DNA of 62,241 nt, filler included, from Porpidia crustulata (Eukaryota), in the NCBI GenBank assembly GCA_964255105.1. It is 5 parts of 5 records of this genome, joined end to end, with 100 filler letters (N's around TTAATTAATTAA, not from the genome) between each part and the next. Parts side by side here need not be neighbours in the genome. Positions count along the whole stretch, not along the records: positions 49,893 to 62,241 come from CAXUWE010000545.1; 4 more parts are not named here. One strand, 5' to 3'. Below are positions 6,301 through 62,241 of this stretch, piece by piece. Position 1 is the stretch's first letter. Each line of letters begins with the position of its first letter. The notes beneath the pieces were generated by a model. The model saw only the letters and a program-made list of their open reading frames with translations, ran no database searches and was not told the origin of the DNA. The position numbers were made by a program, and so were the translations under genes.

Positions 6301-9048
6301 ACACATTGTAGTAATCCGTTGCGTGAAGGGGAATTCGGAGGAAACTCGACTAAATATAGGCAGGATTTTTAACTGAGTAGCAATCTCCTGTTTCCTAGTT
6401 GCGATTGAGCCTTTATTTCTTGCAGGCTTGTCGAGATGTTGCATTATGTATCGCTTCTGCTCATCGGATTCTGTTGAGAGAAGCTTCCTACCCGCGACTA
6501 ACCATGTCAATAATCCTTCGAGGTCATTAACTTCTGCAATACGTAGTCTTGGAGTTGACCTCGCAATTTTTTTCAATAGCTTTATAGCTTCTGCTGGCAG
6601 TAGCTCAGTGTCAAGAATTGGTGGAGCCATATCAGGATCCTTCAAACCCAGGTTTTTTGCAAGACCAAAGAGAGGCTCAGTCTTAGTAATTATCAATAGT
6701 TGTTGAGCTTTTGGACAGGGAACACATTGACGAAGCCGGAGGCTGTTAGTTGGGACGAGCCATAGATCGTCTAATTGGGGAGGCAATTGGCCCTCTTCTT
6801 CAAATCTCGCGCAGATCCATTCCCATATTTTATTGATAGTCGATTCTTTTTCCACGTTCGAGCGTAAGACCCAAGTCCCAAAGCCACCGGACGGTTCGAC
6901 CAAAGGATAGACGATCGGCCAATCTTCTGCAAGATCCGCCAATCTACGATATTTGACGTTTGCCAATTTAGAGACCATGTCTTTCATTAACGATTCTAGG
7001 GTCTGAGCTGTTAGACAATTGAGGTCAAGCGTTCGTCCTTTCATGCTATCAGCGAATAGATCCATTTCCTTGATGTTCCGCGGGAGTAGTAATTCCTTTT
7101 GTCCAGATGCCGAAACTGAGTTATCCAAGGTAGGCCAAAGAGCAATATCACCTAATTCATTGTAAACCTCTTTCGAGAGATGTCGTCAGATCTATGCTGC
7201 AAATCAGACAGGCAATATTCTAGAAGTAGCGCTGAGAGTGCACGAGGTATCTTGAGTAGTGTGAAAGTCTTATCGGAATGCAAGTATGTTCGCACCGCTT
7301 TTGAAGTCGTCCACATTATCGCTGTGGGGTCTGCAGTTCTGTGCTGCAACTTCTCAAACAAAGGCTGTTCAAGATAAATTACCGCGACTCCTGCTTCAGC
7401 CAGGGCCGCCGCGTATTTGGTAATCTCACGTTTCGTTTCAGAGAAGAAACCTTGTTGAATAGTGACGCATTTCTTCAAGGTAGGTAACCGATTCTCTATT
7501 GCCATATCGATTATGTGATCGTCCAAACGATCCCATTGATTGATCGATACTTCTGTTACCTTTGGCCAAAGACTAAAACGTTCCGTGAAACAAGAAGTCG
7601 AGCTTTGATGATGTAAAATTTCCGTCCAAGCTGAAGAGACGCAGCTTGCAAACAGGAAATCATGCCATTTTGTAGCAAAGTCATCAGATCCCGAAACTTG
7701 TCCCGAAGAAGTCAATCGACCACGATCCGGAGTTATGGAAAAGAGGCCATGTATATGTACAGGATGATTCGTCAAGATTGGTAGTCTTAAGGTGGAAAAG
7801 AGCCGTCCGACAAACGCCTCTTGGTGCTGTCTCATAATTGCTGTTAGTCATAAGGCCACAGGAAGGTAATCAACTAGGTCGCTGAGGCAAATCGGTACCA
7901 ATTGGAGTGGGTATAAACAGTTTGACTGACCTTGATAGGGGCTGCCACGGCTACCCAGGCGAAAAGCTTTCGATCTTGCGCCCACTGATCCAAATTCTTA
8001 TTCCCACTCGATCTAGTCATAGTATGATGGACTAAATATTGATAGGTTGTAGAAATCTTCTCCGCAGTGAATTCTATGTCGACATTGAAGGGCTTGGGTT
8101 AATCTCGTTCCGTGCCTTGATCTGAGGCCAATGTGAAGACCTTTGCAAAGTCCGAAGGTATCTGTTGACGTGCTCTATACGATATTAGAATTAACGAGGT
8201 ATTCGAAGGTCCAATCAATGATTACTGACTTCAAGCATTGCTGATGTACCTTCGCTTCCCAAATTACGTCGTCATCAATTCGGACAATAACCTTCTCAAT
8301 GTATCGAAGGAATAGCAATCCTCCTTCTCTAACTTCTCGCCCGAATTGATCTAGGGCATCTTTAATCTCTTCTCTTGTAATTTCGCGATTCACAGTCTTG
8401 CTTGTCATAGCCTGAGCTTTGGTGCGAAGCGGAATACGAATGATCGTTTCGTCAATCTCTCGTGAAACGTCTATATTGAAGGCTTGAAACGTCTTTAGAT
8501 GATTCTGAATCTCCTGACAATTCTGCTCTCTAACGACATCCCAGGTTGGGCCCCCAGGTTGACCTGACTCTATAGACCATCGCTCGTGAGGATCGAGCAA
8601 TAGAAGCCATTTCCGAGAATATACCCATGGTCCGTCCGTCTAGTGATAGATAGAATTGAACCCTTGGCCGAACTTGCCGGTAGAAGTCGCGTCATGTCTC
8701 TTTCGGCTGTCTCCAACCGAAAAGAGGCTGGCAAAGTCTTCATCTCTAAACACGCTGTTGTTTCGGGCCAGCAGAGCTGGACCGTGATACTCACTCAGGC
8801 TCTCATAGAGTAATGGGGAATCTGAATAAGTGTTCGTATCCAGCACATACTCCATGACTGTAGCTTTGGCATCGTCTGCATTCTGTAGTAATTCTCTGAG
8901 ACAGGTGTCAGACAAATAACTCTCACAGATGCTCCTTAGCCCAGTAGTGATCGGCTGTTGCTATTGGTATCTGTCAGTCGATGGCAGATCCTGATGAGAT
9001 TACCTCACTCACCTGATGGAAATTCTTTGTTACTAGTGGGGGTGCCAT
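393..9048 (-). pseudogene. Giant sacsin-like protein (two GHKL/Hsp90-like sacsin ATPase modules plus C-terminal BTB/POZ domain), ~2,800 codons, disrupted in its 5' third
   Basis: ATG at 9048; GT-AG introns at 9012-8961, 8229-8175, 7930-7827 and 4596-4526. Module 1: LRELLQNADDAKA, NNSVFRDEDF, TGKFGQGFNSIYH, KLFAWVAVAAP, GRLFSTLRLP-PVHIHGLFSITPDR. Module 2: FNEFLANADDCRA, HNDGVF, TGMFGRGALSMYHFTD, LPISFHSSFAITGDRR. BTB: DVVFEIEGRRKPAHRIFVAAVSDYCKAQFSGEW. Lesions: in-frame TAG 8642-8640, in-frame TAA 8101-8099, apparent 1-nt deletions at ~7172 and ~6138. Confidence 0.85.
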
Positions 9049-13023: not shown

Positions 13024-16000
13024 TCAATTCTCAGTCACAAATTCCGCGGATTTGAACTCGGCTCTCCCTCTCGACGCGAGCGAGTGCATCGCACCGGCGC
13101 CGTCAAGCCGTTGCTGCTCACCACCGATGACGCCATCACTGTACTGATATGGAGATAGGTAAGCGCTTGCTCGCTTCGGACCCCCCGCCCTCGATCCTTC
13201 CCCATCCGCATGCGTCCCTTGCTGCTGCTGCAGCGCCTCAGCGGCGGCTTTCTTCTTTCGATTGTTCAGATCTCCAATGATCCCCACGATGTACTTCTTT
13301 GCCCTCTCCTTCAACTCTCCGGGTTCGTTGCTCTGCTTAATGGTTTCTAGTAGCACGCGGCATTGCGTAACAGAGTTGAGATGAGGGCAGATGCGCTGGC
13401 GGCCGCTGCCGTAATGAGCGAGGCCGCAGAGTGCGCAAGTGTCGACGCCGGCGAGCTTGAGTGGGCAGAAGCCGGTGGCGTGAAGTTCGTTACAGGCGAG
13501 GCAAGGGGCTTGAGTGGAATAGAGACTGAAGCCGTTCATCTGTGGGGTGTTGGTGGTGAAGAAGGGGGAGGAGCCGCCGTCGAGGTTGTGAGGTTGGGAT
13601 GGGAGTACTTGCGCGCGTTTGGAATCCGGCACTGCCAATGCATCAGCTCGAAGGGAAGGTACAGTGCTATGGGGAAAAGTATTACCTTTGCTATTCGTAG
13701 GCGACGACTGCGATCCGAGGACAGAACCTCGAGAAGCACGAATTTCCTTTGCAGGCTGTAGCTCTTGCAAGTCAATCTGCTCGTCGACTGTTTCCGGACC
13801 ACTCTCCTCGCCGTCGCTGCCAGCACCTCGGGCTTGGAAGTCGGTGTCACTATCTGAAGTATATCGGCGTGAATGATCCTTTCGATGCGAATCGCTGGGA
13901 AGACCGCTAAAAGTCTGCTTCGAATAATCGACAGTCTAAATTGATTAGCATGGGGAATTTCAATTTGGAAAGAGACCCACTTGGCGTGCACGTTTGCCCC
14001 TACCTAATGCCTCGGATTTGACAGCAGCCTCAAGTGCCACTTCATCCTCGCGCTCCTGGAGGATTTTGTCCCAAACCGATGGATCAGGTAAAGTTGCATC
14101 ATTTTCGGAATTGTTGCCAAGCGAATCTTCCATGACTCCTTTGTCATTAGCCCATACACGCGCAAAACTGAACTGCGATTCCGCAGAATTATCCTGCCCG
14201 GTCTGTGTATCCTCAATCTGACTTCTGTCTAGAAGCTTATCTATCGACGCAGAATCATATCGTACGTCCTGGGTATCATCATCTTTGAACAACGCCGCAG
14301 TACCGTGGCGAAGGATGGACTCGAGATCCACACCAGCGTCTTCTTCAGCGTCCATCTGTTCGATTAGTACGTGGTCTAACGCCATCTTCTTCTTCCCAAT
14401 TTGCATAATCTTCTCCTCTGCCGTCGCACGAGTAGTCAGCTGAAAGACGAGCACCTTCTTCTTCTGTCCAATTCGATGGGCGCGAGACAAGGCTTGAATA
14501 TCCTGGTGTGGATTAAAGTCAGGATCCAAGATGATTACCGTATCCGCCGTGGCAAGATTAATTCCAACACCGCCGGCACGGGTTGATAGGAGAAATGCGA
14601 AAAGATTTGAGTCAGGTGCGTTGAACTCGTCAATTCGCTTTTGCTTCTGTAGAGAGCTCACATTTCCATCAAGCCGCTGGTAGTACAACCCCAGACCATC
14701 CATGAAATCTTCAACCATGTCAAGCATGTCTAGAAATTGACTGAATATAAGGACTCGATGACCGCGTTCTTGCAGCTTCGGTAGCATGATTTCGAGTAAT
14801 TGTAATTTAGATGACGCTTCAACAAGGTTGCGGTGAGAAATTGCAGCGTTTGAGCTTCGTTCTTCAATGGCTCTGCTGTAGACGAAAGGGTGACAAAGGC
14901 ATTTTCGGAGCTGCATAAGAATATTATTCAGATTGGCGCGTTCGTTTACCTTCAACGACCTCTGACTACCTCCAAAGATCGACTTGATCAATTCTGGGCT
15001 TTTTGCAAGTATCGACTTGTATAACTTTTTTTGAATAACAGTCATTGTCACAGGGATGATGATCTGAGCCATGGAAGGCAGAAACGTAAGCACTTGAGCT
15101 TTGGTACGACGCAAAAAGAATGGGCGAAGAAGAGAGTGAAGCTTTGAGACATTCTCTTTTGTCAACGTGGTATACTCTTCTTCCATGGCTTGTGCGTTGA
15201 TTGATCCGTCCAGGAATTGGAGGAGATTGAACAGCTCTCGTGGATTATTTTGAAGAGGCGTTCCAGTCAAAAGCACTTTGAAGGAGGTCCGAAGTACAGT
15301 GAGTGCTCCGTATAGGATATTCTTGTCGTTCTTCAGTCGCTGACCTTCGTCGACGATAAGTCCAGCCCAGTGTATGCCGCGGAAAACCTTTCTAAACTCG
15401 TCGTCTTGAGCCGCGTCATAAGAGGTAACCACGACATGACATCTCAGGTCTCTACCGCCTCCAAGCTCATGTTTCAGAGCCAACTTCCGAGCTTCTGCCG
15501 AGCCAAAATACATTACCACTCGTAAAGACGGCGCCCATTGTTTGATTTCGCGCCTCCAATTTGGGCAGGTTGAGTTGGGGACTACTATAAGAAAAGGCCA
15601 GCATCCGTGCGAATGCTTCAAAGTGGTGAGGAGAGCAATGATCTGAATTGTCTTGCCCAACCCCATTTCATCAGCAAGAAGAGCATTTTGACGTTTGTGC
15701 CATTGATAGTAAAGCCAATTCAAACCGTCCAATTGATACTGCATGAGCTTGCCGCCAACTAGAGTCTCAGGTTGCTCCCTTAGCTGAATTTTCTGCTCGA
15801 AATTCTGAGATCTGATTCGTTTCAGGTGTGCATTTAGACTCTGTTGCGCAGGGACATGGATGTATTTTCCCCGGACCCAGTCTTCGTAAGCTGAGGTAAA
15901 ATCTGAGCGTCGCTCGCTGTCTTCCGGATCTGGTGGAGCATCCCATACCACGTCTTCATAGCCAAGGCCCTTGAATTTCATAAGAGCCCGTTTGACTTCT

Positions 16001-18138
16001 CCGACTCGTGCTAAATCAACTTTTTCAACCTGCACCTGAACTACATTCGAGTATTCAACGTCAAACACAATATCCACACGTAGGTAATCTTCGGGTATCG
16101 CGTCTTCGGTTCTCATTTTGGGAAGGTTACTCTGATTTTCACGCCTCGAAAAGGCCTTTCGCATTGATGCAGATGTTACTCCCCATATCCAAGCGCCTGG
16201 CATCCATGTTGATTCAAAATAAGACCTATGCTTCCACTTTACCAAATACTCTTTACTATCCTCTTTGTTGAGTTCCGTTGAAGTGCCTAGGACATAAGTT
16301 TCTTCGTTGATGGGTCGCCAGGCAATAAGGGCGTCTACCGCCGCGGGCGCTGTCATACATTCCATACATGACCAATCTTGACAGTACTCCGTGAAACGAT
16401 CACTGGCGAGCTGCTCTTGATTTGTAGCATCCGAAGGATTGTCATCTCTTCTTGTAGGAAGATGGTACATATGAAAGCCGCGATAACACACGACACAGCG
16501 AAATAGTAGATTGTCGGCGTTGTTGACAAGATGAGGCGCTATTATGGTAGTCGGATCCTCGCCATCATTATCTTCCCGATATTTCTGTTCCTGTATTATA
16601 GTTTTGCGGTCACGGAATGCCTGTGTTGACACACCAGCCACTCTACAAATCGAACACTCACCTTGATTAGGCGCCATGGGATCTTTCCTCTTTGCGGATC
16701 CAATACACCGTCTGCACTGGAGGATGAAGTCACTATCCCCAGCCTTAGTCACAAGGTGGTCTCTGGAATTCCTTGGGCCGAGACATCTTTGGTGATATGA
16801 TAGCGTACAGCCCTGGCACAAAACAAGTTCACCTTTCTCACCTTTCTCATCATGATAACCATAATCACCACAAGCATCGCACATCTGATTGTGACGAAGG
16901 CGAAAGTCATTGTCTTCTGGGATCCGGCGATAGTGCTCTTTGGCACCGACGGCCCTCGATGATTCCTTGTTGGGTATGCTGTCTGAAATCTCGTCCTCCC
17001 CTGGTTCGCGCATGTCAATTACTGTCTTCCTAGACCGTTCGGACCGCCGTTTGCCTTCAGCACGAGGTTCTTGCCGCTGAGGTCCGCGAAGCAGGACTCG
17101 AGCTCGACGTGTACTAGTGCTTCGAGATAAATTTCTTCTGCGTTTACCAAGCCGAGGCCGACTATCTTCACTCTCATCAACATCCGAGTCGTCCATGGGC
17201 GCAATCTCCCTGTAACTGATTGCCCTATTGCCTACGGATCGCATTGTTCGGGTAGTGTGAGGGCGCCCGACCGCACGATTGTACGAGGCTGGCCCAGAAG
17301 CATCACTGATCGAATCTTGAGAAGCTGTGGAGGATCGAGATGTTAGTGATTTTGAATTACGAGCACGGCCGCGCTTTGGTGCGCTTAGAAAGCCCCTCCT
17401 GTGCCTAATAGATGGCTGTGCGGTGGTCAGTTCGTCGTCAGATGACGAACCCATGTTTATGAGATCGACTAGCCTCCTTGACCGTCTGGGCTTGTCTTTG
17501 GCGGAGTAGAGTATGGCGGATTGCTGACTTGAACTAGACTCATCTGAAGCGTGGCGTGAAGAATTGAAAAATCGTTCTAGGGCAGCAGCACCATTCTGGA
17601 GTTTGATGAAGATGTTGTATTTTACCTAGAACAGAGTAATTAGAGGGGTCGTATTGAAGGTGATACTGTGAGGTGAGGCAGCCGTGGCGGCTCAAGGAGT
17701 CCTGATCAAGTACTCATGACCAAATGAGAAATCACTCACTCTTCGCTCACAGCCGTCGCGTAGCTTTACTAGATACTGGATGTCACCCCCATCATCATAC
17801 TCTTCCAGTACTTTTAATACAGGAGCTTCCTTGTAGGTCTGATACTCCCAACGTCGTTCAACAGGAGGTACATGTATTGATATATTCGAACTGGGGGCAT
17901 TATCCAAGTATGTAGCGTCGTGCATGGTCGAAGAAGGCCTCACAGGACTGTCTTGAGGTATAAATAGTGGTGAGTGGCGAGCTTGACTGCCGTTCACGTT
18001 GATCGTGCCCCTGGGCGTACTGTTTCTAATAGAAGAGGCTTCATCCTCTGTGTTTGACACCGTCTTGACAGGCTCAATCTCAAGTACATGCTTTTGCAAC
18101 GTCTCAGCGTCCCTTCCATCTCCAGCCTTCAGTGTCAT
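13024..18138 (-). CDS. MIT1: Mit1/Mi-2-like CHD chromatin remodelling ATPase (PHD-like fingers, chromo-like region, SNF2 helicase, C-terminal zinc fingers), 3 exons
   Basis: SNF2 motifs LLADEMGLGKT, IVDEGQRLKN, LLTGTPLQN, FLLSTRAGGVGINL, QALSRAHRIGQ. PHD-like CDAC...CQGC..YHQRC. C-terminal CLACNELH...CPLK...CALCGLAH...CPHL. Introns at ~17739-17626 and ~13980-13936 join ORFs 17692..18138, 13960..17454 and 13024..13770 in frame. Confidence 0.9.
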
Positions 18139-18678
18139 ATTGCGTTGGAACTAGGATCGGGGCAACCTAGCTTAGGCAAAAGAGCGGAAGGAACAGAAAG
18201 GACGCAATGAAAGTATTCTTCATCGATTGGGTGTTTGGATGCTAAATCCCTACACCTGGCAGGCGAATCAACAAATAGAGCTTCCACGGGCACTCGTTTG
18301 GCACCGCAGGATCATTCTCGTTTAGCAATTGACGCGTCCCGAGTACCGCACTGTATATCTAGGTACACTGATTGCTCGTCTATGCAATTCATAACGATGG
18401 GGTTAGGAGATTCTATTATTTGCAATGGTCTGACGCGCATTGCGTAACGCGGTAGAACTTCGGCATAGACGCGCAAGGGAGCAAAATTACAGGGATACAC
18501 ATTCGCACCCCCCAACGCGCCGCCCTACTCAGAGCTAGTCGATATAGCCCTAACCCTAGGCGTCGCGGACCGTTGGGGGGTGGGAACTAGGTAATCTCGG
18601 GATCCCTGCATAGCAAAATCTGGAAGCTGGAAAATTATCTGTCGTTCCAGATACTTACTACCGACTACACCGAATGTA

Positions 18679-49792: not shown

Positions 49793-49892
49793 NNNNNNNN
49801 NNNNNNNNNNNNNNNNNNNNNNNNNNNNNNNNNNNNTTAATTAATTAANNNNNNNNNNNNNNNNNNNNNNNNNNNNNNNNNNNNNNNNNNNN
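49793..49892. other. Artificial contig-joining spacer
   Basis: N44-TTAATTAATTAA-N44. Confidence 0.98.
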
Positions 49893-51002
49893 GGGCATGT
49901 ATTGGCGGACCTCCTCGCGCAGACGGGATTGAATCTCGGGATGGGTGGAGAGGAGATGCAAGGTCCAGGCGACGCCGGTGGCGGTGGTGTCGTGGCCGGC
50001 GCCGAGGAAGGTCATGACCTGGTCGCGCATGGTTTCGAAGCTGAGTTTGTCGCCCGAGGCGGCGTCGGTCTTCATGTTATCCTTGACAATCAACGCGATA
50101 ATATCCTTATCCTTGGCGTGGGTTGCCGTCTGCTTCTCCCGGATGATCTCCGTCGCTTTGCTAAGAATGATGTTGCGGGATGCGAGCATATCGCGGTTCA
50201 TCTTGGCCGGCAGGTATTTTGTCAAAGGGATGAAGGCGGCCAGGCCGTGCAGGATGCGCGAGGAAATGTCAAAGGCGAAGACGAGGCGGTAGGCTTCACG
50301 GATGGGGGTTTCTGGGTGTTCGAGGGAGTCGAGGTGGGTGCCAAAGCCGGCTTCGCCGATGATGTCCAGGGTGGTGCGGTTGAGCCATTCGAGTACTTCA
50401 AAGGCTTTGCTGCTGACACCTTCCGCGTCCATGCTTTTTTCCCAAAGATGAGACAGCAGTAACGCCTTTCTTTGGAACACCGGTGCAAGAGCCCGAATGC
50501 TCTGAATACTGAAGCCGGGGGTAAGTGCTTTTCGTTGGCGTACGTGTGCGTCTCCTTCAGCGAGGAGCACACCTTCACCAAGGATACGGACCATCCATTG
50601 CTTGGCTCTATCCGGCTTGGGGTAGTTGTAGGGGTTTTTGACCGTCATTTGCTTGAGAGCTTCATCGTCGGCAATGGAGAGACGTTCGGCACCAAAAGGG
50701 AAGAAGTAACGAATGATGGGCCCATGGGTTTTGTGCCAGTCGCGCTGGGGAACACCGATTTCGGAGGTGATGATTGTGCGGAATTGACCCCATAGCGGAA
50801 AGCCAGGGACAGTTGGGACTTTCCGTAGTTCAGAAACGTAAAATGGGAAGATGTAAGAGACCCATGTCAACCAAATGGAAAAGGCAATGGCTGTCGAATA
50901 AGTGAGTGCGACGGCGGGGAGGATATCTGTGAGTCTAGTGACGAGGAGAGCCGAGAGGGAGGAGATGAGGAGGAGAGGTACTAGAGACACTTGGATAGCC
51001 AT
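49893..51002 (-). CDS. Cytochrome P450 monooxygenase, 3'-truncated by contig edge (ExxR and heme-binding Cys not in window)
   Basis: N-terminal membrane anchor, PTVPGFPLWG, GEGVLLAEGDAHVRQRKALTPGFS, TTLDIIGEAGFG, I-helix TFLGAGHDTT, HPEIQSRLREE. Confidence 0.93.
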
Positions 51003-51017
51003 GACGAACAATTGTTG

Positions 51018-51142
51018 CTGGATCGTGGTACTGGGATTTGTGAATGAAGATAGAGGAGGAGAGAATTGGAGAGATATTACTGGATCCTGGTACTGGGATT
51101 TGTGAGATGAGGGTAGAGGAGGAGAGAACTGGAGACATATAA
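51018..51142. repeat. 62/63-bp tandem duplication immediately upstream of the P450 start codon
   Basis: Copies at 51018-51079 and 51080-51142 (CTGGATCsTGGTACTGGGATTTGTGA...TAGAGGAGGAGAGAAyTGGAGAsATAT) differ by about six substitutions and one indel. Confidence 0.88.
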
Positions 51143-53672
51143 ACAAAATCCCCACAAGTCCATGGAGACAGGAAAGCAACCGAACTTCGCTACAATGAGT
51201 ATCCGAACCAAAGCAGCAAAAAGAGCTACCCTAGGAAGTCCCTAGCGCCGTCGTCCGTCGAGCACTCGAGCAAGCCACCAAGTCGTCACTTGGCATCCAA
51301 AGCAGACAGTATCACATGGAAACAGCACCGAAGAGAAGCCCCCAACGTAATCAGACTTGGCTACGTCAATGGCTCACTTCGTGTTTCGGGCCAGGTCGCA
51401 CCAGTTCAGTTCCCACATCAAGGAATGGCCCTGGATGAACCCGTCCCACCAGCGCCACCAGCACCGTCGGATCTCCCAAATGGTAAAGCAGCAGTCCCAA
51501 AGCATGCGGGCATGGGGAGAATTTCTTGATACGATACGTGATCCTCCATCTGCCGACACTAAACACGAGTGTCATGCGCCTTGGGGGCATTCGGGACGCT
51601 TGCCAAGAGACGTGCATCGGACAATATGCCTCATCAGTCGTTGCATAGATCAGACAGGAAGCGCTGGTGCACAGATGCAGCTAAGGTGTCTGTGCCGACG
51701 TTGAGATGCAGTGGAGATCAGGGGGGGGGGGTAAGGTGGTTGGGTAGGCTGGATGGGTGACAATTAGCATGATTGTGGGAATTTGAGTTGGTAGAGAATT
51801 AGAGCTCAAAAGAGGCTTAAGCCACCATTTTTGGCCTTGGTTCTCAATCTCACCGAATCGTAGACTTTGTCATCACGACATCTGGACTGGTTCCCCAAGA
51901 TGATTTGGCCACGTTTACCCGCCGATTCTCATCAGGCTTCAGCGCCAATAAGTAGCTAGTCTGAAGTAAGGTTGACCAAGCTTGAGCAAGGTTGGAGCTG
52001 ACGGATAGAGTGAACTGCAGGGTTCGCCTACTGTGATAAGAGATGCGGATCAATCTCCTGCTTGAGCCCTTCGCTCTTATTCCGCAGTGGAAGTGGGGGT
52101 ATTGGTATGGGTGGGCATGTGTAAGTATGTCTTGTCTGGTATCATTGTATCCCTCCGTACCGAAACCGAAACCGAAACCAATACCGCCTGTTTCACATGT
52201 TTGATGGATGGCTATGAGGCAGCAGCCTGATTGCCCAAATTGCCCAATTCGGCTGTTGCGCTGTAAGCGGGGTCGCCAGCAGTCCGGAGTCACACACTTT
52301 GGCTGACTCGGGACTGTGTATGGCAGGCAAGGACCGCGGCTCGGGAACCCGATGGGTGTGGCTGATTTAACGATGAACACCAAGTATGATCGAGAGGAGT
52401 CGAGTTGGAGAGTCAGCAGTCATACAGGCTATTGGCCTATCACAAGATGTCGGCCCGCTTGATTTGATTGGTGTCGATTAGGATTGCGGGAATGCTAGCC
52501 GGGATTAACATCTTAATCTTGTTCCTTTGCACGTATGTCTATGTAGTCAGTATCTTCACTCTATGATGAAGGAACCACGGCTGAACAACAACTTCCCCGA
52601 TCTAATCTCCTTTGAGTTCCCGGCATCAGTCTCGACGTTCCGAGCAATGTGAATTTGTAATCGATCGAGCTAGTCCGGGGGGGCGAGATGGGTCTCTCAC
52701 ATTAGAAACACCAACAAACAATGTCGTTTCAGTGGTAGGGACGATGGTGTCATTTCCATTTGGACCATCTACTCAACTATTAATCCAAGTAGACAGAGCG
52801 CTTACCATACTTCCATTGGGGATCCACTGTGAAGCGTAATCAGACATGATTCACCAACCGTGAAGAGTCACGGGTATCAACAACCGACTGTGCCATCCGA
52901 GCACATTGACAGGCTGCCACATGTGACCGAGGGAAATATGGCGGGAAGACTCGACTATCAATTACTCATCGACTCTTTCTCGGAGTTTCTCGATTCTGTT
53001 CCAACTAACTTTCAGGGCGTATGCAGGGAGCGAAGTCAAATTAAGGTTCTTTTCACTCTAGTTCTTAGTTGCACTTTAGACTTCTTATCGGTCGTTCAAG
53101 GCTTGGGATAGGATGGGTTGGTAGGGGAGGGAAATGGTGGTGTGTCGTCTGCGAAATGGCAGGGTTTTCATGACCGCGTATTGTACGCTTAGCGGTATCA
53201 TGAGGTCGCTAGCATGCTCCCTGTTGAGATTGACAGGAACGGTCCGCCCTCCCTTATCTTGCCCCAGCTGGCTGATCTTATCCGCGGCCGCTTCCCCATT
53301 CGGCCATATCATGGCACCTTATCTTTGCGGCGCAAGCCACAGTGATTTGAGCAGGGATTCACCAAGGTAAAGACGGTGTATTGTTCGTTATTACACCACA
53401 ACCGCCTGTTAATATCCTCTTTCCAGAATAATTCTTGTGTCAGGTACGCTTGTATTTATGTAACATAATTAATATTTCCTCCCCCACTACACCATTACAA
53501 ATACCCCACAACGTGAATGTCAATACAAGGCAGACGACCGAGGTCTAAAAATAATACTCCTACAAACTCCAACCCCTCCAGATACCCGCGTGATTCCGTC
53601 CGTCGTGGAATCTTCCGTCGCTTGCTTGACCTTGTCTCCCGCTCCGACGCATGCGCAATCGTCGCACAGACT

Positions 53673-54871
53673 TCAGTCCTTCTTCATTCCCATCATCGGC
53701 ATTTCAGAGCCGGTGACCACGGCACTCGCGTGCTTCAGTGCCGCATTAGTTGCCTTGAGTGCGGTAATGGCAGTGTCGTCAATCTCTGATAAGGTCGGGA
53801 TTTGCGTATGCTCCATGTCCGACACCGCATGCACCGTGACAGCCACTTGAGTATCTTTCTTGCTCGACTTCTTGTATGTCGTTGCGTAGAAAGAGAGGAA
53901 GAGGAAGAGGTACGATGACAGAATGGCGCATCCGGTCAGAGCGGCGAACGGCTCCCCTGCGCATTTGCCGACGTGGGGGAGTGCTTGGAGGTATGTGCTG
54001 GCGAGGTAATTGTACGTCGCAAAGTACACGAAGCCTGGTACATGGATTAGTCGATGACAAGGTATATGTCAAGATTTTTGGTTGCTCACCGAGATCAATG
54101 ACGAATTGGATGATCTGAAGCCGGGTGATCCACTTCTTCCATGTAATGCGGATGCCCCGTGCGCTCTGGAAATAATACCAATACATGACCACATGAACCA
54201 TGAGGTTCAGTGTAATCGGGACCCAAGAGACCGGGGTGTGACCAATGAGTTGCGTGTAACAGAGTAACGCAGTCGCTCCATGGTGGTAGCAATGGAGAAA
54301 GGCTAGACGATGTCAGTGGACATAACCTCCAGGGAAGGCCAGACTTACTCAATGGCTTCTTCTTGAGAACCAAAAACACTGTATCAAGTAGTTCGACATA
54401 TTTGGTGAGGTAATTCAACTATTTCGGTCAGCGGATGGTCTATTATGGGAAGGTATCACCAACATAGTACAAAGTCGTTAATTCCTTTGTCCACCCCGAG
54501 CCGCCACAAATAGCATCATAAACACCGTAACTCCACAGAGATGGAACCAGCTGTTCAATGAAGAGTGCCAGCAGAGACCCACTGATAACAGTCAAGTAGA
54601 AATTGTGGATGAGGAACAGGTCGTTGAGTTTGTAGGCCGGCCGACTTCTCATGACTTCTCTGCCGCCAAGGATAATGATGTAGTATAGTGTGATGGTAAT
54701 GGCGGTTTCTTTGACCGTGGTCATGGGAGTTTTGCCCTCGTTGATCCGGAAGCTGGCCGCTGGATATCCCATGGCGGCTTGCCATAACTTGTCGAATGAA
54801 GCCCATGGCGAGCTGAGAGTAAGTCCTGCAGACTTGAGATCGAATGGGCTTTGAGCGTGACTGAAAGACAT
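53673..54871 (-). CDS. Fatty-acid elongase (GNS1/SUR4, ELO family condensing enzyme), 4 exons
   Basis: [28 protein letters not shown], histidine box [42 protein letters not shown]-terminus ends KKD (ER-retrieval-like). Confidence 0.95.
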
Positions 54872-56160
54872 GTTGGATGGAGATGGATATTGACTTGCTA
54901 ATTGAGAATGTAATCTAGAGGACAGGGACTTTGTCAAATATGAAGAGATCTTGAAAGTGCAGGGGACCAGATGAACCTATTGCCAAGAAAGCGATAGTCT
55001 CCTAGCCAAGCGAAAAACAAGCCCTCGAGGTATAACACAACGCCAATGATGGCAGTGGCTTTCCTTCTGAGATAGCCCCCTCCCGCGAATGCTCCGAAAG
55101 AGAACAGTTCCGGCGTTGTAGCCTCTCCGGGTACCCGTGCAGCCAGTCCAGATGTCGGATTCAGACATAGTCTGCTTCTGTTGGGTCCAAACATTTAATC
55201 TTACCGCCTGACTGGGACCCACATTTCGATCGTCATTCATGTAACCCTAATCGTATGAGAAAACGGGACCACCGTAGCAGGGCCAACAGGCTAAGGTATG
55301 AAGAAAGGTTTGAGAAAGTCAGGGCAGAGGCCTTGCGCTAATGCAGTGGTAGATCTATAGGGAATTTTTTCAGTTCAGGTCTAATGATTGTATCTAGCCG
55401 ATAAGAAAAGCTGACAAGTACATTTGAACCGAAGCCGAAGACATGCTTTTCGAGTGAGGTGTCCATAGGCGGAAATGTGTCGGATATCGGTACCGTAGCG
55501 GCTATAGCATTGACTGAGTTCTTGTGTAACACAAACAAGAGAACGAGATATGCTGAACACGCATTTCTTCTGCATCCTTTCCGCTTACAAGAGTCTCCAG
55601 GATCAGGCGCCGCTGACGGATGTATCTGGTTGGGTACCAAGGACCCGAAGATCGAGACAAGTGTCCCATGGATATGCATTGCGTGCATTGTCGGTGATAC
55701 CATGATCCCCGACAAAGCATGGTGGTTGTTATGCAAGAGCGCAGCTGGGGACAACACGAGGTGACTGCTGCAGGAAGAGCTTTGTTGTCGGACTTCTCCA
55801 TTCACATGCAGTGCTAGTGAGTAAACATTAAACACAAATCATACCACCATCGACCAGTATTGCAGTCATATCAGAGGCCGGAGCCTTGTCCTCCATCCAG
55901 CGCAAGAAGCGGTTGGGGCGTCGCGTACTAGTAGCATGGTAGCTGGAAGGCTTTGGGTTTGAGATCTCCTAGTCGTCGACTACTCTGGTGGTGTTGCGGA
56001 TGGCTTGTAAGCTGGCTGATACGGCTGAATTGGCTTGGTGAGGTAGCAAATCGTGAGGGTGTTCAAGCGCCCGATATCATTTCAGGATGATTTGGCTGGT
56101 GGGCTTTTAGACCGGGCTAACCCGATCGGGTAACTCTAACTTCATTGGCCATCCTCTCGT

Positions 56161-56190
56161 TGGTTGCATTTGGTTACATTTGGTTGCATG
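56161..56190. repeat. Three copies of a 10-bp tandem repeat (TGGTTGCATT) in the divergent ELO/thioesterase intergenic region
   Basis: TGGTTGCATT TGGTTACATT TGGTTGCATG. Confidence 0.8.
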
Positions 56191-56640
56191 GGTTTCACTA
56201 TCCCCGGCTCGTAGTTGTGGCTGCTCGGTGCTGAACCATTTTGCCCTAACATGTCGATCTTTCCCAGGAGTGATCATCATCCCTGGTCGGTCTTACTCGA
56301 AATTAGTACGCTTCGGTGTCAATTTCATGGCCGCTTGAGCGAGCATGTCTCCAAACGCCGCATCAGATGATGGTTTCCAAGCAAACCACAGCGGAACTGA
56401 CTCGGCCTGCAGCCCCCTAATGAAATCCGTGGAAAGGGAAATTTACTAGTCGCTACTATGGGGTCCGTATCAACCGTGACCGGTTGAGGTCATGGGAAAT
56501 GGACCCGTAACTTCGACCAGTCCCTATCTCTCTACTACTTTATACCACTCCGGTCCTTCCATTACCTTGTTCCTTGTTGTAGACTTGATCTTTAAAATCC
56601 CACCTCCCCGGTCCTGGAGTCACTATCAAGCCTTTGCACA

Positions 56641-57860
56641 ATGAATTCCTCTATCATGTACTCAAGCTTTGACATACCCGTTGCTGGAGAACCTGTTACC
56701 CAAAGTCTCTCTCAAGCCTTGACCTTGTCAACGTTATGGAAGTTGCTGTTTGTGCTATTACTACTCGGCAACCTTAAGAACCTGCCTTTGGTGTGGCATG
56801 TAAGTACTTCAGCTCTTGTCATATGGGACCTATCTAATTCGAGATACCAGACACGTCTTCTCAATGGGTTCCGATTTGTACTGCGTTCGGAACGGGCGAG
56901 GGCTGGTCCTACGCCCGCTCAGCTCTTCCAGCCCATGATTACCGCTTCGCATGCTCCCCTAACAGAAATCGATTATAATATCCACAGTGAGTTCTCACTG
57001 CCTGTCCTATTGCAAACACCAGTGGCTGATATCATCTGCCAGAATCCAATAGCACATACTTTTCTGATTTAGACATTGCTCGTAGCCATCTTTTATGTAC
57101 ATTATTCTCCGTTGGCATCGAAGAAGCACGAAAAACCAAATCCTCCGGCATCATTGGCGGCGGTAACAGCTCATTCGGAGTCGCACTTGGTGCGGTCAGC
57201 TGCTCATTCCGAAAAGAACTCCGACCTTACGAACAGTACGAGATGTGGACTCGAGTCTTATCTTGGGATCGAAAATGGCTCTACCTTGTCACCCACTTTG
57301 TACGCAAGGATAAAGTCAAGCCCCGCGCATTTACTCTCTACCCCGGTCAAAAGAACGACAGCAGTGATATGAAGCATCTCGACCGGAAAGAAGACGCCAT
57401 CGTGGCCTCGGCTCTCAGCAAATGCGTATTCAAGAAAGGTCGGTTAACCATTGCGCCCGAGACGATGCTACAAGCTTCTGGTCTACTGCCACCTCGACCG
57501 GGCGACAACAGTCATTTGGCGACTATCGAACTTCCCATCCCAAGCAAGCGGAAATTGTCCACCGAGATTCTCGACGTACCGTTCCGTGCCTTTGAGGCGG
57601 CCGATGCAATTTGGGATGCGGCCAAGCAGAGTCTGTTCCCACAGCCAGCGGTGGCGACGGATGATGGGTTTGCCAATGGGCTAAAGAAAGAAGAGGCCGA
57701 GGAGTGGACGTGGCGGAAGATCGAGGACGAGCGTGCCCGTGGAATGGAGTTGGCCAATCTACTACGAGGGCTCGAGGGCTTGGAACAGGAGTTCACGGCA
57801 GATGCAGAAGCATTAGGGAGGCATAGTGATTTGTGGTGGCTATTAGGATTGACTTACTAA
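56641..57860 (+). CDS. Hot-dog-fold thioesterase (THEM6/LcsJ-like family), 3 exons
   Basis: NLKNLPLVWH, PLTEIDYNIH/KSNSTYFSDLDIARSH, LGAVSCSFRKELRPYEQYEMWTRVLSWDRKWLYLVTHFV, ASALSKCVFKKGRLTIAPE. Exons at ~56641-56799, 56851-56986, 57043-57860. Confidence 0.88.
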
Positions 57861-59385
57861 TTACTATTGTAGCGCTGGTGTTTAGTCCGGTTCTTGTGTT
57901 TAGTTGCCTTGTTTAGACTCGATATTCCCCAATCTCGTACGGGATCTAGTATAGTGACCATATCCACTATTTACACTTCACACACCATTAGAGTCTATCA
58001 GTTTAAAGTACCATATCATGACTCGAGGGAGAATTCTGACTGCCTCCATTGGATTGATGGGTCTTCATTTGGAGACCAAAGTTGGATTAGTAAGAGCAGC
58101 GTGGTCAAGCGTCGGGTGTTAGTGCTGCTGTCTATTGATGTCATCGATCCAGGATGCTGACATGCGACCGAGCCAGGGGGACCGATTAAGCTTTTATTCG
58201 CCTGTGATTATGCATAATCTGTAAGATTACAGCAGGGATACCGTAATAAATACTTGGCAGGGATTTTTGATACAGGTATCGCCCTGGTATGCATCCCTGA
58301 TCACTGTTGCATACGATCGACATAATCGACGAGACTTCAACGTGTTTCTTAATCTTTATCATGCTCTCCGATTGGCTGTTTAACCAGCCAGCCACCACCC
58401 AGGCTAACTTCCTTGGCGACTGCTCGTATTCCGCAGTGTATGATTCAGTATCTCAATCTGTCTGATCCCTCTATCCCACCCTGTTATCTACTGGCTCGCT
58501 GTAACCACGGCATCTCACTAGTACGGAACACAATACTCCCACTATACTCTACTCACTCTACTTACTCAAAGGAGAGACCGCCCGAGAGAAACCATGTACC
58601 CAGTACATCTACACTATCTTCATCTAGTGTCTTTCCCTGGCCAAGCACTCCTCGAGCCTTGCTTTCTATCCTATCCTGATTTTTCCGACAACAGCCGTCT
58701 ACCAGATCATGTCTCGGTACATCAAAGCGAAGTCGAAATCTACCACGCTGGTTTATGCACGTGCAGATATGCATCCGCAATAGATTACATGCTGGACTTG
58801 GGAACCAGTACGACTCTCCGCCGAGCATCGACCATCTTATCCTCTATCCGCTCGAATAGGCCAATTGCGAGACGAAACCCACTTTCGCTTCCTTATTCCC
58901 AAAGCAACGGACACCACAGCACCGAACGCTGCCAACCCTCAGCACCTACGCCTTGTACATACGCTCCCTCTGACTGGCTCGTATCTCTCAACCCTCCAAC
59001 CCTTGGAAATTCAACAGCCTGTCTCTTGCCTTCCTCGTGGCCGCTTGATTGCCTTTGGTGGCTTGCATGCCAGCGGAAAAGTTGGCAGGCAAAGGACGAG
59101 AAGCTGATCAGTGGCCACGTAATGCTATGACGCTACAGAGATTGAAGTGCTTTTCGTCGAGGACTGCAAGCACGTCTCCCCTAGCCGTGGTGGCCCGATA
59201 GCCTGTTGCGGGCAAGCTCGAGGCGGCATCCTCGACCCAAGAGACGCCGACCCATCGCCCGTCATATTGCCCACAGTGAGGCACGAACCCGATCTTGTGG
59301 CAAGGGTCTGATCTTGACAAACAGCGTCATAGTTGTTCCGGCGACAGCGACGCTGCTCTGGATGCTGTGCTGCGGTCACTGAACC

Positions 59386-62185
59386 ATGTCTGGTGTCTCT
59401 GGTCCACAAGCGTCGGTGCCTGATTCTGTTAATACCCTGAGGGCAATTCGTGACAGCAGTTCCACGATAGGGAATCAGCACAGGATGAATCGAGCAAGCG
59501 CCAAAGCAAGCAGGAGCACCTCGCTCAGCGAGGTGACTTCGTTGTCCAGGTTCAGCGATTCGGCGTCAGATATGGGCGATCCGGAGAAACGTGTCATGTC
59601 CCATGACAGTTTGGCTTCCAGGGCTCAAGACATGAAAATTGAAGGACTGACAATGAAGCGAATGATGACCCCAGATCTGGAGGAGAATAGAACGCCTAAC
59701 GAAGATGTCTCGAAGCCAGCAGACAGTGGCGAATATCCTGGACCATTGGCACTTTCTCTCCTCACCATTGGTATATGCTTGTCAGTGTTTCTGGTGTCAC
59801 TAGATAGGACCATTGTGGCCACGGTATAAAATCTCATCCATCGACCGTACTACGCTAATCTTACTACTCAGGCTATTCCTCGAATTACCGATGAATTCCA
59901 TTCTTATGCCGACGTGGGCTGGTATGGCAGTGCCTATCTCGTCACTGCCAGCGCCCTCCAACCCACTTATGGTCGAATCTTTACACTATTTGACATCAAG
60001 TGGTCTTTTCTCGGTGCCATGGCCACCTTCGAAATCGGAAGTCTCATCTGCGGTGTTGCGCCAAACTCCGTCGTTCTTATAATTGGTCGAGCTATTGCTG
60101 GATTTGGGAGCGCAGGCATTGTGACTGGCTCTTTTGTGGTGGTGGCACATAGTGTTCCGTTGGTGAAGAGACCTGTGTATACCGGCATGGTCGGAGTCAT
60201 GTGCGCAGAGTCCATATGCTACATGAGAGGATTGCTGACGCGATATACAGGTTCGGCCTTGGAGCTGTCGTTGGACCTCTACTCGGTGGTGTTTTTACGG
60301 ATCGTCTGACATGGCGTTGGTGGTATGACTCGTCACCCTGTCTGATTTTCGACTAGATTCTGACAACATCAGCTTCTATTTCAATCTTCCTGTCGGGGGT
60401 TTCACTGTTGCTGCCATGGTATTTCTATTTAGGCCTCAAAAAGAAACTTCCGAAAATATTCCACTGCTGCAGAAAATCTTACGACTGGATCCCATGGGAA
60501 ATGTCTTATTACTGGTAGCATCGGTAATGTTCTTTCTATCATTACAATACAACGAATTAGGCTTTGCATGGGGCAGCGCCCGGATAATTGGCTTACTTGC
60601 CGCTTCTGGTGTCGTTGCAATCATCTTCATCGTCTGGAACCGTTTCAAAGGCGATGAAGCCCTGATACCACCAAGAATTATCAACCAGCGCAGTGTTGCT
60701 GTCAGTTGTGTGGCTGCTTTCTTCATTTACGGCGTCATGTTGATCCATTCGTACTTTCTACCGATTTATTTCCAAGCCATCAGAGGTACCAGCCCAATTG
60801 GTTCAGGCGTCGACATGATCGCATACATGCTCGCGAATGCCTTCTTGTCGCTATTCACTGGTATTTTCGTCTCAAAGGTTGGCTATTACACCCCACCGGC
60901 TATCGTCGGCGGTGCCATTGCAACTGTCGGTTGTGGACTTTTGAGCACGCTCCAGATTAACACGCCAACTTCTCAATGGATCGGATATGAAGTGCTAGTT
61001 GCAGCAGGACTTGGAATGGCCATTCAGCAAGGTTTCATAGCTGTTCAAACCGTTCTTCCCTTGGAACAAATCCCCATAGGTGTCGCGGCAATAGCATCGT
61101 TCCAAAGTCTGGGTGGTTCGGTCTTTGTTTCGGTTGCCAACAGTATTTTACAGAATGCACTGCTCAAGGCTTCATCTTCCAATCAAATACCCGGCGTTGA
61201 CATTCATCATGTCATTTCTGCCGGGGCAACCATGTTTCGGACTTTTGTCCCTTCCGCGTCTCTTCCTGCGTTATTGAGCGTCTACAATGCCGCTCTACAA
61301 AAAGTCTTCGTCACTCCAATCCCACTAGCAGGCCTAGCCTTTGTTGCGGCTCTGGGCTTGGAGTGGAGGAGCGTAAAAGGGGGTAAGGAAAAGGCGATGG
61401 AGACTTTACAAGAAATACAAGACGAAACGGGAGATGATCCATTACGAACAAGCGAAAGCCACGATCCAGAAAAGACCATCAACCCGTTCGACTCTGAGCG
61501 GGCTTCCAGAATATGTCCAGAACCTGGCAGCCAAGATCCAAGCATTGTACGAAAACGAGGAAGCGTCAAGAGCGCCCGAGAATCTCTCGGAGCGTCCAGA
61601 GAGTTCATAACCGACCTTCATGGCATACTGCGAAGCAGTAGTACCACCCCACGACCCGAGCTCTCTGAAAAACACGACCATGGCACGATCTCGCCAGACC
61701 CACGTAGACTCTCACCACACTATTTATCGGAAACTTCCGAAACCTCGCACGAACCACGAAGCGAAGAGGACCCTGCGCTCGTCAGTGAGACTGACGCACG
61801 AGAATTCTGGGTCGCGCCTAAACAAAGCCGAAAACCCTCACCTAAGAAAGCACAAGATTCCATACCCCTTCCGCCCGACCTCGAGCCTTCTCCCGTTCGC
61901 GACTCACCTTCATCTGGATCCCCCGCACGAGGCCGCCAGCCCTTGAAAGCCCTCCATAGTCCCTCCGCCAACCCTGAGCCATCAACCAACCCCAAAACTC
62001 CAACAACCTCCAAAGAATCCCGCCCCGACGAGAAGACGTCGAAACTACGGAAACTGCTTGCCTCGGAGACGTACGAGGCGCTATTGAAGGCGCGCAGGGA
62101 GATTGACGAGGAGCTGCAGAGCCGAAGGGGGGTTGATGTCATGGATCGCGTGATTGAGAGTTTTGGGTATCAGCGGGGTGTTTGA
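59386..62185 (+). CDS. MFS efflux pump, DHA2 (14-TM; AflT/GliA-like) family, with a long C-terminal tail, 4 exons
   Basis: LVSLDRTIVAT/AIPRITDEFHS, WYGSAYL, GRAIAG, WRWC/FYFNLP, LPIYFQAI, EWRSVK. Exons at ~59386-59823, 59871-60200, 60251-60321, 60373-62185. Confidence 0.93.
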
Positions 62186-62241
62186 GTGGAGGTTTTTGGG
62201 TGGTAGGGCGAGGGGGTGTTGGGGTGTTGGGTGTTGGGTAG

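Follow-up and report, generated by a model that had tools for sequence, protein, structure and literature searches.

Can a fatty acid elongase, rather than a polyketide synthase (PKS), a non-ribosomal peptide synthetase (NRPS) or a fatty acid synthase (FAS), build the chain in a fungal biosynthetic gene cluster? The question is raised by a stretch of DNA from Porpidia crustulata (assembly GCA_964255105.1), a window of 62,241 nucleotides in which the whole of one contig (CAXUWE010000545.1, hereafter C545; 12,349 bp of a fragmented 22.9-Mb assembly, positions 49,893 to 62,241) is a region of clustered genes: a cytochrome P450 (CYP-A), an ELO-type elongase (ELO), a hotdog thioesterase (TE) and a major facilitator superfamily (MFS) transporter. 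Judging by sequence, sets of four or five such neighbouring genes occur in many fungi, among them lichen-forming species, plant pathogens and root fungi. We think it rather probable that they encode a pathway of the endoplasmic reticulum (ER) whose exported product is an oxidised long- or very-long-chain fatty acid, with the ELO as chain builder and no synthase of the cluster's own.

Four genes on one contig

The original prediction, made from the sequence of this DNA, recognised four genes on C545, and gene models, Pfam matches for all four and purifying selection bear this out. The genes are real and intact, barring the P450, which is cut by the contig end. Selection on each of them is purifying, the ratio of non-synonymous to synonymous substitution (dN/dS) in comparison with the closest relative (locus L022) being 0.054 for the P450, 0.121 for the ELO, 0.046 for the TE and 0.036 for the MFS. 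The dS of the ELO to L022 is 0.70, about half that of its three neighbours (1.4-1.9).

The elongase (53,673-54,871, minus strand; 350 aa) has four exons (54,871-54,464, 54,418-54,349, 54,302-54,090 and 54,034-53,673) with GT-AG introns, matches PF01151 above the curated cut-off and, aligned with ELOVL7, keeps intact the HxxHH box and the KYxELxDT, HxxMYxYY and QxxQ motifs. Two other ELO genes bring the genome's count to three. One, on C451, lies in a housekeeping gene neighbourhood, clusters with household ELO2-type proteins and is 49-56% identical to the cluster ELO over two matched pieces; the other (C1489:3,927-5,112; L013) is a divergent family member with a long hydrophilic insert and tail. 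In the ELO tree, for which the sequences of the loci were projected by tblastn and include some mis-spliced stretches, 17 cluster rows form a single clade (100/99) as against 25 household rows; as the tree was midpoint-rooted, this is the only split that we regard as supported. This genome and Lecanora helva each have one cluster-type and one household-type ELO, and near the luminal loops the cluster type carries residues of its own. The cluster ELO is a dedicated second copy, in a faster-evolving clade apart from the household ELO.

Transcribed away from the ELO, across a shared region of 1.77 kb (54,872-56,640) that holds a conserved non-coding block (54,953-55,262; 71% identical to L022), lies the thioesterase (56,641-57,860, plus strand; 370 aa; exons 56,641-56,799, 56,851-56,986 and 57,043-57,860). 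Its start is either at 56,641 or at 56,656, where the methionine is kept in a close relative. It is a membrane-anchored 4HBT_2 protein of THEM6/LcsJ-like type, with a PF13279 score of 30.9 bits against a cut-off of 25.5, invariant E-x-D-x-N-x-H columns and, by hydropathy, an N-terminal membrane helix. The model of the Mycoblastus orthologue (predicted local distance difference test score 76.5) has a single hotdog fold after a long N-terminal helix, and its nearest structures are SgcE10, Lpg2867 and CalE7 (E 5e-5 to 2e-4), of which SgcE10 and CalE7 are chain-releasing. A PDB sequence search with the TE gave spurious repeat-protein matches only, and NCBIfam offered nothing useful for the enzymes. 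The genome holds a second THEM6-like TE (C565:10,540-11,592; L078), 44% identical to the cluster type and set among housekeeping genes (SEY1-like and eIF2D-like by eye).

The fourth gene is a predicted DHA2-type exporter (59,485-62,185, plus strand; exons to 59,823, then 59,872-60,200, 60,251-60,322 and 60,373-62,185), whose start is uncertain (59,386, 59,485 or 59,572). It has MFS_1 matches; TIGR00711 (DHA2) is the best NCBIfam model for both exons tested, below the cut-off exon by exon, and there are 14 hydrophobic segments at a lax threshold of 1.1 and 11 at a strict one of 1.6. Its C-terminal tail (61,400-62,185; about 250 aa) is hydrophilic and rich in Ser, Pro and Glu, is kept in the closest relative (dN/dS 0.14) and is much shorter in other orthologues.

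At the opposite end, CYP-A (49,893-51,002, minus strand) starts with an ATG at 51,002 and then runs for 370 stop-free codons to the contig end, which, as first noted, falls inside the gene; these are the first 370 of about 540 residues. The protein matches PF00067 (E 4e-39), carries an N-terminal membrane anchor and the I-helix motif AGHDTT, and is 65-91% identical to its best 120 orthologues. Its C-terminal third was not found in its own assembly, where a 91%-identical orthologue used as query has a next-best match of 37%; two candidates at contig starts (C1152 and C1762) were rejected, the better being 33% identical, and contigs of the one sequencing run listed as carrying this DNA, probably the source sample, extend neither end of C545; no RNA run was listed as carrying it. 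One orthologue carries a FUM15-like annotation, FUM15 being an enzyme that works on a long aliphatic chain. An ESM Atlas search returned generic P450 clusters only, and P450 family names were not found in the available supplement files of PMC4122930 (three of four) and PMC3158057 (12 of 45). Given what is established for these families, and from hydropathy, it is plausible that the ELO, the P450s and the membrane-anchored TE are ER proteins. The three intergenic regions of C545 showed no sign of a further block of conserved coding sequence.

Linkage, order and age of the gene set

Do these genes keep company elsewhere? A metagenome scan with the P450 alignment gave 48 loci, of which six (L064-L069; distant P450s with no CYP-A match of at least 45%) were left out of the count, and the 42 retained fall into 27 groups at 96% DNA identity. 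The ELO adjoins the P450 in nine groups, with the TE also visible in eight of them; seven groups have all four genes in the order MFS-TE-ELO-P450, and two more have the ELO (one with the TE) up to the end of the DNA. A further ten groups have less than 2.8 kb upstream, too short to tell. In every one of the 17 groups with an informative upstream flank, either the ELO or the MFS adjoins the P450, so the adjacency is not a matter of chance. Moreover, in 16 of the 16 groups where both can be judged, ELO and TE either both occur or are both missing.

Annotated genomes tell the same story through their gene numbers. P450, ELO and TE are consecutive in Botrytis cinerea (BCIN_15g04780, 04790 and 04800) and Sclerotinia sclerotiorum (SS1G_13909, 13908 and 13907), as well as in S. 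nivalis, Stromatinia cepivora and five further Botrytis species; the P450 and the TE (or ELO) lie no more than three numbers apart in the lichens Psora, Protoblastenia, Mycoblastus, Letharia, Trapelia and Lecanora, and likewise in Oculimacula, Cadophora, Phialocephala, Hyaloscypha, Monilinia laxa and Paecilomyces, making 15 named genera in total. The linkage that the original prediction expected of orthologues in relatives is thus found in Lecanoromycetes and Leotiomycetes and, for the P450 and TE, also in Paecilomyces. Its divergent ELO-TE pair, on the other hand, is correct for this genome and not a general trait, because the ELO, which points toward the P450 in lichen-type loci, is inverted in Leotiomycete-type loci. 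One Trapelia coarctata model (MMC30_006815, our P0413; 1802 aa) fuses CYP-A with a VPS9-ankyrin gene, probably an annotation read-through.

Could the four genes nevertheless be mere neighbours, or a conserved housekeeping block without a shared function? The block travels as a unit between differing flanks, survives an internal inversion of the ELO, consists of paralogues and not of household copies, and shares the promoter motif described below. Gene-number linkage and group synteny largely refute a chance association, nothing was found in its favour, and we consider this explanation very improbable.

Whilst the order MFS-TE-ELO-P450 is conserved, a set of four proved too narrow a definition, since a CYP52-like second P450 (CYP-B) is often a fifth member. 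Four groups have CYP-B after CYP-A, and the lichen group L032/L053 has it on the far side of the MFS; its motifs resemble hallmarks of the CYP52 clan, and by these comparisons it appears to be a frequent but variable member of the cluster. The 9-10 kb downstream in L022, L037 and L039 showed no CYP-B, L022 ending before it passes the MFS, and a CYP-B flag in L059 was disregarded, being probably a cross-match to the same P450. Of the outgroups for the CYP-B tree, C1472 gave no open reading frame (ORF) and C178 aligned poorly. In the present genome, contig C1413 stops within the final intron of a P450 gene (5,480-6,968; L074). This P450 shares 88% identity with the MFS-flanking fragment of L032, as against 65% for the paralogue on C587, and has the position and orientation expected of a right-hand neighbour of C545; it is probably the fifth cluster gene here. 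Upstream of it lies a ferritin-like gene. The C587 paralogue itself (C587:1-4,020; L075) is CYP52-like, 54% identical to the C1413 protein, and adjoins an ORF that by eye resembles a CAT/TRI101-type acyltransferase; this is possibly another small lipid-tailoring locus. In B. cinerea, the acyltransferase Bcin15g04760 is two genes away from CYP-A.

The history of the set bears on an alternative. Perhaps the true core consists of the P450 and the pump: CYP-A would oxidise an ordinary fatty acid and the MFS export it, with ELO and TE as optional boosters of the precursor supply that do not determine the product. Indeed, eight of the 27 groups have the MFS directly beside CYP-A with neither ELO nor TE between them, so CYP-A and a pump can persist without a cluster elongase, and CYP-A in these loci is still 53-68% identical. 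Six of the eight belong to the Sordariomycete clade (seven loci examined, the remaining one being too short to tell), while L058 falls among the Leotiomycetes and L060 was not placed. The elongase-centred reading of the original prediction is thus supported in part: the conditions that it named for its own refutation did not refute it, given the linkage, the lack of an adjacent synthase and the parallel expression of ELO and P450. Against the P450 and pump as the core, the tree of CYP-A sequences (FastTree only) places the MFS-only loci, several of them on long branches, within full-cluster lineages, which indicates loss; the full order minus TE and ELO is exactly the MFS(-) P450(+) pair of the Sordariomycete clade, and loss from an ancestral full cluster would be the simplest reading. 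That the cluster ELO forms a clade of its own, with its own luminal-loop residues, also speaks against a dispensable booster. We regard this alternative as unlikely, whilst giving it more weight than any other. In L040, L041, L046, L051 and L056, which are Sordariomycete-type, the MFS-P450 pair sits in one conserved housekeeping setting (cysteine-synthase-like and TFIIS-like genes by eye).

The same tree tracks fungal classes, with Paecilomyces first, then lichens, then Leotiomycetes together with Sordariomycetes, and it groups the CYP-A of this genome with those of Psora and Protoblastenia, which, together with the ketosynthase matches on 27 contigs, suggests a lichen-forming Lecanoromycete. 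With the confidence that we give our reading as a whole, we believe that the cluster is probably old and has been vertically inherited in filamentous ascomycetes.

Expression, a promoter motif and the search for a synthase

If the genes form one pathway, they should be used together, and published expression data agree with this in part. In axenic cultures of three Monilinia species, ELO and P450 run in parallel (315, 16.5 and 31 against 189, 17 and 20 reads per kilobase per million), and both are among 65 transcripts listed as high in M. fructicola on plain media (PMC5987419, main text). In S. sclerotiorum, the TE, ELO and P450 (SS1G_13907, 13908 and 13909) are up 2- to 3.4-fold at 1-6 h on Brassica in the gene list of PMC5372324. 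Co-expression therefore holds for ELO with P450 and, in Sclerotinia, for the TE as well, whilst the TE and MFS orthologues are missing from the main-text Monilinia table. The available supplements of PMC5124961 and PMC5987419 contained no matches to the cluster genes, and an eLife table (PMC6557632) gives lesion correlations only.

Might such induction instead reflect defence? Resistance genes typically betray themselves as a duplicated essential enzyme next to a pump, and the cluster ELO is such a duplicate, an extra copy of a household target. It could be a resistant or additional target for an outside inhibitor of very-long-chain fatty acid synthesis, with the TE freeing CoA from the inhibitor, the P450s oxidising it and the MFS exporting it; the early rise of the Sclerotinia genes during infection would fit, and the P450-MFS remnants resemble detoxification pairs. 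Yet M. fructicola expresses ELO and P450 strongly in plain media, and a single inhibitor common to lichens, root fungi and thermotolerant moulds, all of which retain the set, seems unlikely. A literature search on elongases as resistance genes found no such case. A role in detoxification is, in our estimation, distinctly unlikely. A self-resistance cluster would, in addition, hold a synthase for the inhibitor, and none turned up among the flanking ORFs or in the B. cinerea census considered below.

The intergenic region offers a second line of evidence on shared use. A k-mer search picked out the 9-mer ATGACGATC from six of nine discovery loci; in this window its sole exact copy on C545, a candidate cis-element, lies about 360 bp upstream of the ELO start (55,228-55,236, minus strand). 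In a held-out test, six exact matches were found in 17.2 kb upstream of 13 P450s (P 4e-8), set against a background of three in 288 kb, coding DNA included; genome-wide there are 259 in 22.9 Mb, or one per 88 kb. All six held-out matches fall in five loci of non-Sordariomycete type, and the other eight, which are Sordariomycete-type, have none, a further point against the P450 and pump as the core. The FarA (CCGAGG) and SRE-like motifs showed no consistent pattern in the cluster loci.

We then come to the synthase itself. The original prediction saw no PKS, NRPS or FAS and allowed that one might lie beyond the contig. A scan of the flanks of 11 loci took in 67 ORFs of 120 aa or more (short exons falling outside it); none matched a PKS, NRPS, FAS, terpene-cyclase or glycosyltransferase Pfam family, whereas 19 matched other families. 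Beyond the P450 lie repeats or VPS9, catalase, bZIP or DOCK genes, varying by locus, that is, housekeeping or repeat DNA, and there is no synthase on C545 or C1413. The key-enzyme census of B. cinerea lists only the acyltransferase Bcin15g04760 between Bcin15g04500 and 04999 (PMC11173184), and the key-enzyme table of a review has no Bcin15g04 entry (PMC9920419), as far as the available parts of both sources go. A set of 18 Bcin15g04 rows in the supplement of PMC7719232 at first resembled a predicted biosynthetic gene cluster and proved to be secretome and effector orthogroups.

These findings bear directly on the possibility that our genes serve a PKS, FAS or terpene pathway in tailoring or resistance, and that its synthase sits further out on the MFS side than the sampled DNA reaches, or in another part of the genome. 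There is room for one: the genome has 55 ketosynthase matches on 27 contigs, the flank on the MFS side is thin, and in the leucinostatin cluster 4HBT_2 thioesterases and P450s do stand alongside PKS and NRPS genes (PMC4946873, in the text available). There is also an older gene number to account for: the old Botrytis model BC1G_06146, which is grouped with the Sclerotinia TE (PMC4039746, in part), stands two numbers away from Bcdtc2 (BC1G_06148), a diterpene cyclase that databases have meanwhile removed according to the accessible text of PMC11173184, and neither number could be mapped to the Bcin15g series. Against this stand the 67 flanking ORFs without a synthase, the flanks that change from locus to locus, and the lack of a listed key enzyme near Bcin15g04780-04800. 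We judge a hidden synthase to be improbable.

Elsewhere, two kinds of gene lie close to individual loci (L034:15,764-17,737 and L058:6,011-6,550): a TSC13-like enoyl reductase directly follows CYP-B in L034, and HsbA (hydrophobic surface binding) genes are near the cluster in L034 and L058. The window as a whole joins its five contigs via N44-TTAATTAATTAA-N44 linkers, the one at 49,793-49,892 (N44, PacI sites, N44) marking the start of C545. On the other contigs, we noticed by eye a very large multi-exon gene that is sacsin-like with a C-terminal BTB domain (393-8,639, minus strand) and a CHD/Mi-2-type chromatin remodeller with PHD, chromo and SNF2 parts (13,024-18,150, minus strand).

A proposed elongase-built lipid and its parallels

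How would such a pathway run? In a first step, the cluster ELO would condense malonyl-CoA onto a fatty acyl-CoA taken from primary metabolism, and the household ER reductase, dehydratase and enoyl reductase would be borrowed to complete each cycle. The membrane-anchored TE could then free the chain from CoA, divert it from the sphingolipid pool and help to set its length, after which CYP-A would hydroxylate it and CYP-B, where present, would oxidise the far end to an alcohol or acid. Finally, the resulting hydroxy- or dicarboxylic acid would leave the cell through the DHA2 pump. As the cluster spans many lifestyles and HsbA genes lie near two loci, we favour a role as a surfactant or surface-coating lipid over that of a narrow toxin.

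Several observations weigh against this pathway, in addition to the MFS-only groups and the Botrytis numbering. Synteny is imperfect: in Paecilomyces the P450 and TE are separated by a one-gene gap and the ELO was not seen in that locus, the Monilinia vaccinii-corymbosi tags (002120, 002704 and 002760) are not adjacent, although all three proteins report a contig of the same size, and the MFS-only L058 sits in the Leotiomycete clade, its other flank being visible for 0.6 kb only. The link between C545 and C1413 comes from one relative, with no sequence bridging them, and on the MFS side six loci offer just 0.8-2.4 kb past the transporter gene. L034 alone has the TSC13-like gene adjacent; in L050 it is about 4 kb off, and L047 lacks it. 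As for regulation, SS1G_13905, 13906 and 13910 are not in the Sclerotinia list, at least in the parts available, where changes are only 2- to 3-fold, and the 9-mer was picked post hoc, with shuffles reaching five of nine discovery loci against the observed six; in L032, L034 and L037 the intergenic DNA of the cluster lacks an exact copy, and in the window the 9-mer is absent upstream of the P450 and MFS.

We would nonetheless venture one step further, tentatively and with slightly less than even confidence: that this is a class of elongase-built clusters older than the split of Lecanoromycetes, Leotiomycetes and Eurotiomycetes. Its product would be an oxidised very-long-chain fatty acid resembling cutin or suberin, with which lichens, root endophytes, and grey and white moulds coat or wet their surfaces, and ATGACGATC would be the shared regulatory element. 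Should this hold, elongases would join the enzymes able to define a fungal biosynthetic cluster, and genome mining that relies on backbone enzymes would have a blind spot, the B. cinerea copy being absent from both key-enzyme lists in their available form (PMC9920419 and PMC11173184). The cluster may indicate an unrecognised extracellular lipid common to lichens, root endophytes and major plant pathogens, it may point to enzymes for making long hydroxy- and dicarboxylic acids, and it is present in tractable fungi with named genes (BCIN_15g04780-04800 and SS1G_13907-13909).

Has such a cluster been described? A literature search that included the Botrytis and Sclerotinia gene numbers, with many supplements lying outside it, found expression tables and lists only and no cluster description; what we have here is a conserved and apparently undescribed cluster without a canonical synthase. 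Its nearest parallels may be glycolipid pathways. The sophorolipid cluster of Starmerella bombicola comprises CYP52M1, UDP-glycosyltransferases, an acetyltransferase and an ABC transporter; in it and in the ustilagic-acid cluster of Ustilago maydis, a P450 hydroxylates a fatty acid that is then exported, as we suppose here. The former reportedly does without PKS or NRPS, like our cluster, and the latter uses two P450s on one chain, much as CYP-A and CYP-B might. Unlike either, our loci have no glycosyltransferase among the flanking ORFs, and no FAS or ABC transporter; ELO, hotdog TE and DHA2-type MFS take their place.

A hotdog TE in the company of P450s is reportedly found with aspercryptin AtnL, oxaleimide PoxG and wortmanamide TwmA. 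The leucinostatin cluster with LcsJ likewise places a 4HBT_2 hotdog TE beside P450s that process an acyl chain (PMC4946873, in the text available). In that text LcsJ is only listed as 4HBT_2 thioesterase-like, and the thioesterase that was deleted was LcsE, so LcsJ, which the original prediction cited, offers a resemblance of family and not a functional precedent. The likeness of our TE to LcsJ and AtnL is one of family and domain. In lipopeptide-type clusters, moreover, a PKS or FAS builds the chain and hands it to an NRPS or C domain; here none of these was seen, and the ELO stands in that place.

For the role of the product, a model is the yeast DIT1-DIT2-DTR1 spore-wall system, in which a P450 and an MFS transporter make and export a building block of a surface layer; the analogy is one of structural role only, as the chemistry there is that of dityrosine, without elongase or thioesterase. 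For the enzyme itself, the closest relative is the household ER elongase cycle (ELO2/FEN1-ELO3/SUR4, IFA38, PHS1 and TSC13; mammalian ELOVL7, PDB 6y7f), which shares its family and its catalytic motifs. What sets the cluster ELO apart is that it belongs to a separate clade and travels with a TE, a P450 and an MFS, whilst the household copy is retained.

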